Notes: a model not told the origin generated them from the letters alone. Positions 33,117 to 41,900 are shown, numbered from the stretch's first letter. The stretch: DNA of 64,000 nt from an uncultured Actinomycetota bacterium (GCA_963850895.1 CAWKNK010000011.1:117841-181840); one strand, 5' to 3'. Translations and numbers: made by a program.

Positions 33117-33857
33117 ATGGCAGCAACAATTGCCGGCTCCACCGCGTTGGTGACCGGAGCCACGTCCGGGATCGGCCGAGAAATCGCGTTACGACTCGCC
33201 GAACGCGGGGTTGAGGTGGTGGTCCACGGCCGCAGCGCCGAACGCGGCGCGAAGACGGTCCGTGATATCGAGAATGCCGGCGGTAGGGCGCGTTTCGTCG
33301 CGGCGGACCTCAACGATGGCGACGACGTGCGCCGCCTGGCCGCCGAGGCCGGACCGGTCGACATATTGGTCAACAACGCCGGCATCTACCAATTCGGGTC
33401 GACCGTAGCGACCGACGATGCGACGTTCGACGAGCACGTGAATGTGAACCTGCGCGCCCCTTACATTTTAGTCCAGCAGTTGGTGCCAGGAATGATCGAG
33501 CGCGGCAGCGGCTCGGTGGTCAACGTGAGCACCGTTGCGGCCTCGGTGCCGGCGAGCGGTGCGGGCATCTATGGCGCCACCAAAGCCGGTCTGGAGCAGC
33601 TGACGCGCGTCTGGGCGGATGAGTTCGGCGGATCGGGGGTGCGGGTGAACGCGATCGCCGTCGGGCCAACCGACACCCCCGGTGTGGCCGCCCTGCCCGG
33701 TGTGTTGGAGGCGGTGGCGGCCAGCACCACGCTGGGCCGGCCGGCCGAAGCCAGTGAAATCGCCAGCGCGGTCGTCTTTCTCAGCTCCGCCGACGCCAGC
33801 TATGTGAACGGTGCAGTGTTGCCCGCAACCGGCGGTCAGCGCGCAATTGCCGCCTGA
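33117..33857 (+). CDS. SDR-family oxidoreductase
   Basis: TGATSGIG, NNAG, YGATK. Confidence 0.92.
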   Translation: MAATIAGSTALVTGATSGIGREIALRLAERGVEVVVHGRSAERGAKTVRDIENAGGRARFVAADLNDGDDVRRLAAEAGPVDILVNNAGIYQFGSTVATDDATFDEHVNVNLRAPYILVQQLVPGMIERGSGSVVNVSTVAASVPASGAGIYGATKAGLEQLTRVWADEFGGSGVRVNAIAVGPTDTPGVAALPGVLEAVAASTTLGRPAEASEIASAVVFLSSADASYVNGAVLPATGGQRAIAA

Positions 33858-33871
33858 AGAAACGTTTTTCA

Positions 33872-35575
33872 CTACAGGTCGAGAACAAGATCGGTCTCCG
33901 GAGCCGCCGAGCAGATGAGCACGGTCCCCTGCTCGGCCGGCTCCAGCGGCTGCTGTATGTAGGTGGCCCTGCCGGCAACGACCCCGGTGACGCACACGTG
34001 ACAGACCCCGCTTCGGCAGGAGAACCGGGTGGGCACGTCGCAGGCTTCGGCCAGCTCGAGGATGCTTCCGCAGCCGGATGACCAGTTGACCGTCAGGCCG
34101 CTGCGCGCGAACGTGATCGACGGCCCCGTTCCCGGAAGTCCCGCGGGGGGATGCGGTGGCTTACGAGGGGCGCCGTCGACGATGCCCGGGTTGATCGGCG
34201 GGAGGGCGCCGAAGAGTTCGCTATGGATCCGCTCTGGGTCCAGGCCCCTCGCGGTGAGAGCGTCGCGCATGTCGCTCATGAATTCGGTTGGGCCGCAGAG
34301 GTATGCCGTGGCGTCGGTCGGGATACCCAGCGCCGCGACGGCCGGCCGGTCCAACCTCCCCTGTGTCTGCGTGTAAAACACCGACTGCCGCGCACGCGGC
34401 AACGACCCGATCAAGCTCGCGACTTCGGCCGCGAATGCTTGCGTTGCACGATTGCGCGCGGTGTGCAGCCACCAGATGTCGCGGGCGCTGCGGGCCGCCG
34501 AGAGCGCATGCAGCATCGCCAGGACGGGCGTGATGCCGATTCCCGCCGACATCAGCAAGACCGGGCCGCCGCCATTGGTGAGGCAAAACTCGCCGCGCGG
34601 GGCGGCGGCCTCAACGACCGAGCCCGGCTCGATGTGCTCGTGCAGCCATCGGCTCACCAGACCGTGCTCGTCGCGTTTGACGCTGATGCGGTAATGCCCT
34701 GCGGCGGGGTCTCCCGAGAGGGAGTAACTGCGCAGCGGTGCCGGCGCGCCTGCGCCGGGGACTCGCACCGTCAGGTATTGCCCGGGGAGCGGCGGCGGAA
34801 GGGCGGCATGGTCGTCGGCCTCCAGCCGGATGGACATCACCTGTGGGCTTTCCCGGCGTATTGCGCTGACACGCAAGGGGCGAAACCCATCCCACGCCGG
34901 CTGCGCTCCCGGGATTTCGGCGACGGATTTCTGGTGCGCTTCCAGCATGTCCCGGAACGACTGCTGCCAGCCGGGGCTGAGCGCGGGGACGTCGACGACC
35001 TTGCGGAGTCGGTCGAAGTCGCGGTTCGGCAGATACAGAAGCGCGTCGACGTCGGCGATGCTGAGCTCGTGGCGACCCCGGCGGGTACGCACGACGTCAT
35101 CGCCGGCGCGAACCTGTCCCTCGGTGATCACCCGAAAGTAGAACCCCGGGCGCCGTTGAGAGACAAGCAGGTTCGGCATCTTGGGTTCGTTCAGACGCAG
35201 ACCTACCCGGAAGCAGGTGACGCGGGGCTGAGTGACCTCGAACTCGGCCTCACCGATCCGGTAGCGGTCGCCGATGCACACATCGTCGTCGGGCAGTCCG
35301 GTGATCGTGAAGTTCTCCCCGAAGTGGCCGGGCACGAGGTCGTCGCGACCCAGGTATCTCTTCCAGAAGTCGTATGACTCGGTCTGGTACACCATGACGG
35401 CACGCTGCTCACCACCATGGCCGCCGAGATCGCCCTGGCCGTCGCCGTCGATGTTCAGGCGGCGCACCATGACCGGCCCGTCGACCGGCGTCTTCCAGAT
35501 CCCCGTGTAGACGGTCTTGTCATGCCACTGCACGTTCTTGGGCATGCCGACGTTCACCGAGACCAGCTTGCCCAC
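33872..35575 (-). CDS. MOSC(YiiM-like)-FAD/NADH reductase-2Fe2S fusion oxidoreductase
   Basis: GENFT, QPRVTC, RSYSLS, SAGIGITP, CGP, CRSGVCHVC...LIC; GGAGGTG RBS before GTG 35575. Confidence 0.9.
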   Translation of the reverse strand: MGKLVSVNVGMPKNVQWHDKTVYTGIWKTPVDGPVMVRRLNIDGDGQGDLGGHGGEQRAVMVYQTESYDFWKRYLGRDDLVPGHFGENFTITGLPDDDVCIGDRYRIGEAEFEVTQPRVTCFRVGLRLNEPKMPNLLVSQRRPGFYFRVITEGQVRAGDDVVRTRRGRHELSIADVDALLYLPNRDFDRLRKVVDVPALSPGWQQSFRDMLEAHQKSVAEIPGAQPAWDGFRPLRVSAIRRESPQVMSIRLEADDHAALPPPLPGQYLTVRVPGAGAPAPLRSYSLSGDPAAGHYRISVKRDEHGLVSRWLHEHIEPGSVVEAAAPRGEFCLTNGGGPVLLMSAGIGITPVLAMLHALSAARSARDIWWLHTARNRATQAFAAEVASLIGSLPRARQSVFYTQTQGRLDRPAVAALGIPTDATAYLCGPTEFMSDMRDALTARGLDPERIHSELFGALPPINPGIVDGAPRKPPHPPAGLPGTGPSITFARSGLTVNWSSGCGSILELAEACDVPTRFSCRSGVCHVCVTGVVAGRATYIQQPLEPAEQGTVLICSAAPETDLVLDL

Positions 35576-35685
35576 CGTGTCACCTCCGGGCCCCTTAAAT
35601 GGGACGGCCGGCCCAGAGTATGCCGCCCCGGACCGGAGGGCAACACGAGGCGGGACTATTGCGCCGAGCTCGTTCTGGTGCATAC

Positions 35686-35701
35686 TGGGTTAGGCAACCC
35701 A
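35686..35701. promoter_or_regulatory. TGGG-N8-CCCA palindrome, putative TetR operator 1
   Basis: TGGGTTAGGCAACCCA in divergent MOSC/hydrolase gap. Confidence 0.65.
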
Positions 35702-40539: not shown

Positions 40540-40931
40540 ACAGCGATTTCGACCAGATTTCCGTCGACGTCGCGGCAGTAGTGCGAGGTCATCGGACCCA
40601 AGGCTCCCGTTCTGGTCACCGGCCCCGCAATAATCTCCGCTCCACACCCGACGAGGTGGGCGCGCACCTTGTCCGGGCTGCAACGGGTGATGAAGCACAA
40701 GTCCTCGGAACCGGCCGCTTCGACCGACCCGGTGACCCACTCGGGATCGTCGGCCAGCGCCCCGACGGGCCGCAGGTTGAGTTTCTGCTCGCCGAAGCGC
40801 AGAGCGATTCGGTTGGACGGCCCGAACGTCTCTCGCCGCATGCCGAGCACCCGTTCGTACCATGCCGCGGTCGCCTCGACGTCGTTGCAGTTCAGCACGA
40901 CATGGTCGATCCGTTCCACCGCGAATCCCAC
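40533..40931 (-). CDS. VOC/glyoxalase-family protein (GLOD5-like)
   Basis: IDHVVL, EQKLNL, GSEDLCF, YCRDVDGNLVEI; AGGAGG RBS before GTG 40931. Confidence 0.85.
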   Translation of the reverse strand: MGFAVERIDHVVLNCNDVEATAAWYERVLGMRRETFGPSNRIALRFGEQKLNLRPVGALADDPEWVTGSVEAAGSEDLCFITRCSPDKVRAHLVGCGAEIIAGPVTRTGALGPMTSHYCRDVDGNLVEIAVY

Positions 40932-41050
40932 GCTCGACCCTCCTGTGGTGGGGCGAAAATCATTCGTTGCCAGAGTAATCCGAACACCCCGTCGACCGCG
41001 GTGCCCGGGCATCCGGGTGTGGGACCATGGCGCTCCTTTACGCTGGGGTC

Positions 41051-41074
41051 ACCAGACGTTTTAATACGTCTTAT
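41051..41074. promoter_or_regulatory. GntR operator palindrome overlapping its start codon
   Basis: AGACGT-TTTAAT-ACGTCT perfect arms within ACCAGACGTTTTAATACGTCTTAT. Confidence 0.7.
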
Positions 41075-41900
41075 GACCACCCGGTCGTTGGACCTCGAGG
41101 CCGCCGATCTTCGAGTTCGGCGCGGCAGTGTCCCCGCGAGCACCCAGCTCGCCGAAGCGCTCAAGGCCGCGATCATCAAGCAGCGCCTGCCCCGCGGCGG
41201 ACGCCTGCCCAGCGAGCGGGAGCTGATCGATCGCTCCGGTCTGAGCCGGGTAACCGTGCGTGCGGCAGTCGGACTGCTCGAGCGGCAGGGCTGGTTGGTT
41301 CGACGCCAGGGCCTGGGCACCTTCGTGACCAACCCGGTGAGACAAGAATTGGGCTCCGGCGTGCGCACGATCACCGAGGTCCTGGCGAGCTCCGGCATTA
41401 CTCCGCACGTCGACGTGCTGTCCCATCGCGTGGAGGAGCCGCCGCAACGAATAGGCGAAGCGCTGGGCCTGTCCAAAGTGCTGTGCATCCACCGGCGATT
41501 CCGCGATGGGGACCTGCCCCTGGCCCTGATGATCGCCTACCTACCGCCGGGACTGGGAAAGGCCGTCGACCCACTGCTGTCGAGTGTGTCGGACACGCAA
41601 CCCGCGCGGGCGATGGAAAGCACCTACACGATGTGGGAGCGGCGACTGGGCATCCCCGTCGCCCGCGCCACGTACGAGATTCACGCGGCCGGGGCCTCCG
41701 TCGAGGTGGCCGGCGCGTTGAACCTGCCGTTGGGCTCTCCCGTGCTTGTGCTCGAACGCATCAGCTACGGCAACGACGACAAGCCCCTCGAGGTCGTGGA
41801 ATTCCATTACCGCCCCGAGCGGTACCGGTTTTCCGTGACGCTGCCGAGGACCATGCCGGGTCCCGGCGCCGGGATCGTCGAGCGGCGTTCGAACGAGTGA
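41073..41900 (+). CDS. GntR/HutC-family regulator with UTRA domain (Rv0792c-like)
   Basis: GRLPSEREL...SRVTVRAAV...RQGLGTFV; C-terminal FHYRPERYRF. Confidence 0.9.
   Translation: MTTRSLDLEAADLRVRRGSVPASTQLAEALKAAIIKQRLPRGGRLPSERELIDRSGLSRVTVRAAVGLLERQGWLVRRQGLGTFVTNPVRQELGSGVRTITEVLASSGITPHVDVLSHRVEEPPQRIGEALGLSKVLCIHRRFRDGDLPLALMIAYLPPGLGKAVDPLLSSVSDTQPARAMESTYTMWERRLGIPVARATYEIHAAGASVEVAGALNLPLGSPVLVLERISYGNDDKPLEVVEFHYRPERYRFSVTLPRTMPGPGAGIVERRSNE

Follow-up and report, generated by a model that had tools for sequence, protein, structure and literature searches.

The 64-kb window analysed here (the whole stretch CAWKNK010000011.1:117841-181840 of assembly GCA_963850895.1, with positions counted from its first letter) comes from a slow-growing, environmental Mycobacterium close to M. 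scrofulaceum, M. parascrofulaceum and M. paraffinicum, and contains two overlapping genes for TetR-type regulators that lie amid genes for reductases and hydrolases and are accompanied by five copies of a 16-bp palindrome. The regulator genes, tetR1 (36731-37423, + strand, 230 aa) and tetR2 (37420-38094, + strand, 224 aa), share an ATGA start/stop overlap, and TetR_N and TetR_C_13 domains score above the Pfam cutoffs in both products. Upstream of them is a divergent pair consisting of a gene for a reductase with YiiM-like MOSC, 3-alpha, FNR-like FAD/NAD and 2Fe-2S domains (33872-35575, - strand, GTG start at 35575) and one for an alpha/beta hydrolase of the haloalkane-dehalogenase/epoxide-hydrolase (DhaA/soluble epoxide hydrolase) type (35781-36653, + strand), both recognized by Pfam. 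Downstream is a run of three + strand genes, encoding an NAD(P)H quinone oxidoreductase (QOR) of the PIG3/zeta-crystallin type (38233-39279; Pfam/NCBIfam; GTG start at 38233 after GGGAGGAG), a type II haloacid dehalogenase-family (HAD) hydrolase (39385-40077; NCBIfam TIGR01428, 181.6 bits vs a cutoff of 125.4) and, last, a Cupin_2 protein (40081-40539; Pfam). Pfam and NCBIfam thus bore out the gene calls of the original prediction, which had been made from this DNA sequence without database searches. The MOSC reductase scored 106.8 bits against the NCBIfam YiiM 6-hydroxyaminopurine reductase model, below its cutoff, and the hydrolase likewise fell below the cutoffs of the NCBIfam dehalogenase models; it has an HGFP oxyanion motif (HGxP) and its nucleophile Asp in VQDYGA, with Tyr replacing the nucleophile-adjacent Trp of DhaA in a comparison with PDB structures.

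Exact matches to the palindrome TGGG-N8-CCCA were counted over the whole window. There are five, all of them inside 2.55 kb (35600-38151), as against a mean of 1.33 in shuffled windows, and none of 100 shuffles gave five. Given 120 matches in the whole assembly (5.876 Mb, 67% GC), 0.05 would be expected per 2.55-kb span, and the Poisson tail for the clustering is 3e-9, or ~7e-6 when corrected for all such spans. Four of the sites, S2 (35686..35701, TGGGTTAGGCAACCCA), S3 (36682..36697, TGGGTTGGATATCCCA), S4 (38113..38128, TGGGACAGCTAGCCCA) and S5 (38136..38151, TGGGTCGGATCGCCCA), are those on which the original prediction was built, and all four are indeed present; it had overlooked S1 (35600..35615, TGGGACGGCCGGCCCA). 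The accompanying statement that the palindromes are intergenic is true for all five, including S1, because the MOSC reductase gene starts at GTG 35575 and the S1-S2 distance in relatives varies by non-multiples of three. A 603-aa version of the MOSC open reading frame (ORF), with an N-terminal extension to 35683 that would cover S1, was dismissed on the same indels and on the Shine-Dalgarno-like GGAGG (reverse complement of 35583-35587) ahead of GTG 35575. When a position matrix derived from 317 orthologous sites, whose pooled consensus is the dyad-symmetric TGGGnYRnnYRnCCCA, was scanned over the whole genome, the five sites came out as its top five (scores 19.6-29.8, S3 being the highest at 29.8), the next scores being 15.1 and 14.1. 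The match scoring 15.1 (C13:9412) was rejected as a further operator, as it lies inside a MoxR-like coding sequence.

The motif goes with the regulator pair. A TetR1 orthologue (E <= 1e-82) was found in 64 of 151 species of the genus, always with a TetR2 orthologue adjacent, and of the 34 genera of the family that were sampled only Mycobacterium has the pair. Each of 30 genus loci carries the motif, mostly in 4-5 copies at corresponding places, and over 80 loci from GTDB the sites fall at about -1120, -1030, -48, +1385 and +1408 from the tetR1 start, with the S3 equivalent at -48 (in a minority, -47 to -65) in essentially all of them. Among 13 more distant loci, with 57-70% TetR1 identity, 11 retain 1-6 sites, often in tandem, 22-23 bp apart and with an A/T-rich, -10-like hexamer between them. 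Of the 64 genomes that have the TetR pair, 41 show this tandem pattern, as against none of the 87 others (Fisher P = 9e-21); a reversed control pattern is absent from all 151, and, among the tandem matches listed, all but one adjoin the pair. In one species a second tandem operator (TGGGTTAGCTCACCCAGTATTTTGGGTCATAGGACCCA, G125:C74:26377-26414) lies on a different contig from that of its TetR pair, and may be a target in trans or belong to a second copy. Conservation in orthologous islands had been named beforehand as a refutation test, and the motif is kept in ~90 Mycobacterium loci at the same relative positions. That the palindromes are something other than a TetR operator, be it chance palindromes in GC-rich DNA, a dispersed repeat or a different regulator's site, is in consequence highly improbable: nothing elsewhere in the genome reaches a comparable score, position is conserved over those ~90 loci, the 87 genomes without the pair lack the tandem pattern, and one-mismatch matches in the window are at chance level (39 found vs 36.7 expected). 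Judged from these comparisons of sequence, the operator and its regulon are very probably genuine and conserved, with a tight link to the TetR pair. The description of the block as an accessory island stands only in the sense that 64 of the 151 sampled species have it; its GC content (0.64-0.70 across the block) matches the genome average of 0.67, and horizontal transfer of the block was rejected on these grounds.

To place the sites relative to promoters, three intergenic regions were aligned with MAFFT without using the motif as a guide; in these alignments only the half-sites and short neighbouring -35/-10 boxes are conserved. The predicted MOSC promoter (35617..35644, - strand) has a -10 CATACT (reverse complement of 35617-35622) and a -35-like GTTGCC (reverse complement of 35639-35644) with a 16-nt spacer, in columns conserved over 76 orthologous regions, and S1 lies directly downstream of the -10, over the predicted +1. 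The predicted hydrolase promoter (35659..35686, + strand) combines a -35 TTGCGC (35659-35664), a 16-nt spacer and a -10 CATACT (35681-35686) within a block, TGGTGCATACTGGG, that is >=95% conserved in most columns; S2 begins at the last base of this -10 and covers the predicted +1. The predicted QOR promoter (38104..38132, + strand), with -35 TGGACA (38104-38109), a 17-nt spacer and -10 CATAAT (38127-38132), gave 10/12 matches in a consensus scan and has both hexamers conserved over 78 orthologous regions; S4 sits in its spacer, overlapping the -10 by 2 nt, and S5, 23 bp after S4, lies over the predicted +1. For the regulator genes, the predicted -10 TAGCCT (36719..36724, + strand) is 6 nt before the tetR1 ATG, an in-frame TAG at 36719 excludes an upstream tetR1 start, and no -35 box was identified in the footprint alignment. 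The tetR1 transcript would then be leaderless, a geometry by which S3 (-49..-34 relative to the ATG) covers the -35 region. The 15 nt preceding this ATG, GGTTAGCCTGACGCG (within 36705-36733), include the -10 and are >=80% conserved, about half of them >=95%, across 65 species, which exceeds the needs of a -10 box alone; a similar segment, GTTAGGCTGACGG, comes after S5 in this genome and is not conserved at that place. The claim that TANNNT hexamers lie just downstream of the palindromes was partly right, the adjacent hexamers being CATAAC (S3), CATAAT (S4) and TAGGCT (S5), whereas S1 and S2 are instead closely preceded by CATACT, read on the strand of the gene that is transcribed. From these promoters, transcription would start near 35610 (- strand), 35693, 36731 (leaderless) and 38139. 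Relative to these predicted promoters, the operator positions are typical of repression by occlusion.

The self-contained regulon with its own operator that the original prediction had envisaged, centred on the TetR pair and with sites ahead of the MOSC/hydrolase pair, the TetR pair and the QOR-HAD-cupin run, is upheld, although its span (33117-41900) had been drawn too wide. No site, even with one mismatch allowed, accompanies the SDR gene (33117-33857, + strand; Pfam/NCBIfam), the VOC gene (40533-40916, - strand, in its 127-aa form; the ORF reaches 41012), the gene for a GntR regulator of the Rv0792c family (41085-41900, + strand; above the NCBIfam cutoff) or the adjacent dyp-encapsulin genes, and, one-mismatch matches being at chance level, there is no degenerate site to be credited ahead of the SDR, VOC and GntR genes. 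The predicted regulon is therefore 33872-40539, with all of these outside; the VOC gene has an upstream region in common with the Rv0792c-family GntR gene. The DyP ORF (30987-32255, + strand; Pfam match on 31242-32255) and the encapsulin gene (32252-33049, + strand; Pfam/NCBIfam) on one flank (30987-33049), and the GntR gene on the other (41085-41900), match the M. tuberculosis neighbourhood of Rv0798c/Rv0799c (encapsulin/DyP) and Rv0792c (GntR), where the corresponding region is presumably a shortened one with insertion sequences. Between dyp and an M18 aminopeptidase gene (- strand), 31036-31235 is a 57-bp tandem repeat (3.5 copies, 99% matching) resembling a mycobacterial interspersed repetitive unit/variable-number tandem repeat, and because of it both long ORFs through this segment are artefacts.

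Within the regulon, the MOSC reductase, the hydrolase, TetR1 and TetR2 form a core whose members each occur in 71-80 of the 80 loci (the MOSC reductase in 71), and the hydrolase gene adjoins the TetR pair in 79 of the 80 close and 9 of the 13 distant loci. The downstream cargo is variable, with QOR in 57, HAD in 64 and cupin in 68 of the 80. Genes found behind operators in relatives further encode a CxxxxC flavoprotein disulfide reductase, a double DUF427 protein, a TMEM175-like membrane protein, a MOSC_N-MOSC protein, SDRs, a crotonase and a DUF417 protein (the Pfam family of RclC). The double DUF427 and TMEM175-like proteins take the place of QOR or accompany it in several relatives, and in most the 493-aa flavoprotein disulfide reductase (active site CSYWAC; L031:10752-12233) is encoded between the HAD and cupin genes; it is cleanly absent from the genome analysed here, where the cupin gene starts 3 nt past the HAD gene (40077-40081). 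A sixth motif match in many relatives, 3.4-5.9 kb downstream of tetR1, was discarded as coding, since it falls within the CxxxxC active-site codons (YWACVPS) of this reductase. The mix of reductases and hydrolases would fit detoxification of reactive xenobiotics, and does not single out chlorine stress.

We then considered whether the two regulators work as one unit. TetR1 and TetR2 are 42% identical and have in common an invariant recognition-helix motif, GSQ..HYF, which fits the identical half-sites of the operator. They are encoded by a single 440-490-aa ORF in 20 of 94 orthologous loci, including all seven members of the most divergent clade, and 11 changes between fused and split are needed on a tree of the concatenated proteins, where well-supported branches force at least five; the Arg/Pro-rich linker evidently tolerates frameshifting indels. 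The genome analysed here has two ORFs, and thus not the single polypeptide that characterizes a double-TetR. An AlphaFold2 model of a natural fusion, the 453-aa M. europaeum ORF L053, was obtained from a 14-row alignment with pLDDT 84.6 and pTM 0.85, only the linker (222-235) and the termini being disordered, and each half resembles single TetRs (3qbm, 3bru, NemR and PA2196) with TM 0.77-0.87. One half matches 3bru, a Rhodobacter sphaeroides TetR structure that we take to be AcuR. Foldseek ranked Mce3R (9b7y_A) first among full-length PDB matches to the fused model, aligned over 448 columns, but with TM 0.49-0.55, rmsd 10.5 and 15% identity. Were TetR1 and TetR2 instead separate homodimers that compete for or share the operators, two independent inputs would result, and the symmetric half-sites and identical recognition-helix motif would indeed let either homodimer bind, while tandem sites 22-23 bp apart could hold one dimer of each kind. 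We regard this as quite unlikely, given that single-chain fusion recurs, that the ATGA coupling suggests equimolar synthesis, that the single-chain pseudo-dimer is modelled with confidence and that the solved double-TetR, Mce3R, is one asymmetric unit with a pair of helix-turn-helix (HTH) motifs (PMC11667970). Because of the recurrent fusion, the fused-chain model and the ATGA coupling, we lean towards a TetR1:TetR2 heterodimer that would be the split form of a double-TetR.

Our interpretation of the locus, to which we assign a probability of about 0.7, is that it is a repressor regulon of strictly local reach, autoregulated and peculiar to Mycobacterium, in which TetR1-TetR2 would act on the five operators. 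Made from overlapping genes, the two paralogous TetR_C_13 proteins would act jointly, most likely as a heterodimer, on the dyad TGGGnYRnnYRnCCCA at four promoters, with S1 on the MOSC +1, S2 on the hydrolase +1, S3 on the -35 region of tetR1-tetR2 and S4/S5 bracketing the -10 of QOR-HAD-cupin, where the bound repressor would block RNA polymerase. A small molecule or thiol modification would free the repressor and so switch on the enzymes, which might act by reduction or hydrolysis on reactive xenobiotics that are probably N-oxidised, quinone, epoxide or organohalogen compounds. Here we infer that the pair represses and is a heterodimer, and what kind of inducer and substrates are involved. The following points weigh against this interpretation. 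Neither HAD nor cupin is preceded by its own operator in this genome, and they lie 105 bp past QOR, so that their membership hangs on read-through from QOR; HAD is presumably co-transcribed with QOR, and directly ahead of it an operator does occur in two distant loci (L115 and L116). Near two divergent fused orthologues (L113 and L114) the motif is missing even allowing one mismatch; there the operator or the targets may have changed, with other sites being used. Finally, the fusions favour a heterodimer but are not proof of one for the split form. The fused proteins of these two loci (L113:5407-6741 and L114:5168-6526) are 56-58% identical to the fused M. europaeum protein, sit on long tree branches and have no hydrolase gene nearby.

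As to what the repressor senses, the dedicated reactive-chlorine/electrophile defence proposed from the outset would refine our interpretation by making TetR2 a NemR-like redox switch, with Cys112 oxidised or alkylated by hypochlorite, chloramines or electrophiles. E. coli NemR-nemA-gloA resembles the present locus in having a TetR_N plus TetR_C_13 repressor, a 16-bp palindrome at its own promoter and reductases for reactive compounds (here predicted). Cys112, invariant in 93 of 93 orthologues, occupies the NemR Cys106 column, one half of the fused model superposes on NemR with TM ~0.8, and the cargo behind relatives' operators includes the CxxxxC flavoprotein disulfide reductase, the DUF417 protein, QOR and MOSC reductases. 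Such a switch is nevertheless rather unlikely. Lys175 is the partner in the Cys-Lys sulfenamide switch of NemR, and BLASTP sets Tyr181 of TetR2 opposite it; 3qbm and PA2196 have the GC-motif Cys as well, which makes it a family trait; and identity to NemR is 19-22%, with E ~1e-3 for TetR1 against PDB sequences, a link at superfamily level only. The region upstream of E. coli nemR has TAGACCGACTGGTCTA, with half-site TAGACC as opposed to TGGG here, and the present locus differs further in its two paralogous subunits, one of them Cys-free, and in having no old yellow enzyme-type reductase and no glyoxalase I behind the operator. Similarity to the Rcl system is also distant, the relatives' flavoprotein reductase reaching 130-146 bits vs an RclA cutoff of 740 and the DUF417 protein 99 vs 275 for RclC; this genome lacks the reductase gene, and the window has neither an RclA- nor an RclC-like gene and no AraC-type regulator. 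The NemR analogy is accordingly a lead and not membership.

Another reading is classical, reversible ligand sensing dedicated to one class of compounds (epoxides, haloalkanes or haloacids), with the hydrolase at its core and the substrate or product of that enzyme as inducer. The hydrolase gene is the one most constantly linked to the TetR pair, its product, with an Asp as nucleophile, belongs to the DhaA/soluble epoxide hydrolase type, and HAD exceeds the cutoff for type II haloacid dehalogenases. There is, moreover, a precedent in the related TetR AcuR, which acrylate, a small carboxylate, frees and whose gene comes first in a leaderless operon that also encodes a QOR-family reductase. The remaining cargo (QOR, DUF427, TMEM175-like, MOSC, SDR and crotonase) is, however, species-variable and more like a detoxification tool-kit than a pathway; a Tyr stands in place of the halide-stabilising Trp next to the nucleophile, and the locus has no transporter or downstream assimilation genes. 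On balance we consider such dedicated sensing possible, though not probable. The Rhodobacter sphaeroides AcuR-acuI-dddL system is alike in the leaderless geometry of its regulator gene, its promoter-overlapping operator and an MDR/QOR-family reductase as target (PMC3017554), and TetR2 has the NCBIfam AcuR model as one of its best named matches (2e-10), yet at 40 bits vs a cutoff of 247. AcuR differs in that it is a single, acrylate-induced regulator with the operator TAATAGAC-n6-GTCTATTA (PMC3017554).

The Cys of TetR2 also allows a bolder, and doubtful, proposal. TetR1 is Cys-free in 84 of 93 orthologues and has Thr-Pro where TetR2 and NemR have Gly-Cys; in an obligate heterodimer with divided labour, TetR2 might act as the Cys sensor and TetR1 as a Cys-free second DNA-reading head, with release brought about when reactive chlorine or electrophiles covalently modify one thiol, in a unit repeatedly split and fused across Mycobacterium.

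The locus offers a full and directly testable regulon for which there are an operator consensus with five sites on four promoters, a regulator pair and a cargo list covering ~90 species, and it should be of use in non-tuberculous mycobacteria, whose TetR regulators are mostly uncharacterised. Repeated passage between the two-gene and the one-gene form makes a natural series on the origin of double-TetR proteins such as Mce3R, and also addresses whether two ligand pockets are required in a TetR dimer. Should the inducer be a disinfectant-derived oxidant or an organohalogen, which is conjecture, the regulon would bear on the chlorination tolerance of mycobacteria in water systems.

A narrow literature search found no published description of a regulon of this TetR pair, and the passages on Mce3R, two-TetR proteins and adjacency in the survey of mycobacterial TetRs by Balhana (2015) do not mention the pair. 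Its closest solved relatives in sequence and fold are PA2196 (4l62/3rd3) and Caur_2221 (3qbm), with E = 1e-13 to 4e-9 and the TM values per half given above; these also have the GC-motif Cys, but are homodimers from single genes. Double-TetR proteins are known but rare, Folcher et al. having counted 204 in Actinomycetes (PMC3711444), and Mce3R (Rv1963c), with a non-palindromic 25-bp-type site, is the only one with a structure (PMC11667970). The pair described here differs from Mce3R in being two separate, translationally coupled genes, in a sequence similarity confined to the HTH (E = 4e-4), and in having halves that are clear paralogues and not two distant TetR subfamilies; its operator is a dyad-symmetric 16-mer in five copies, read by two HTHs that both carry GSQ..HYF, and so is not the asymmetric operator of Mce3R. 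Like Mce3R, it is mycobacterial, is predicted to control oxidoreductases and hydrolases, and is proposed to join two different TetR units into one DNA-binding unit, which in the 20 fused orthologues is likewise a single chain. Set beside these systems, the locus appears to be a local repressor regulon of an ordinary kind, apparently undescribed, whose unusual feature is its split or fused double-TetR.

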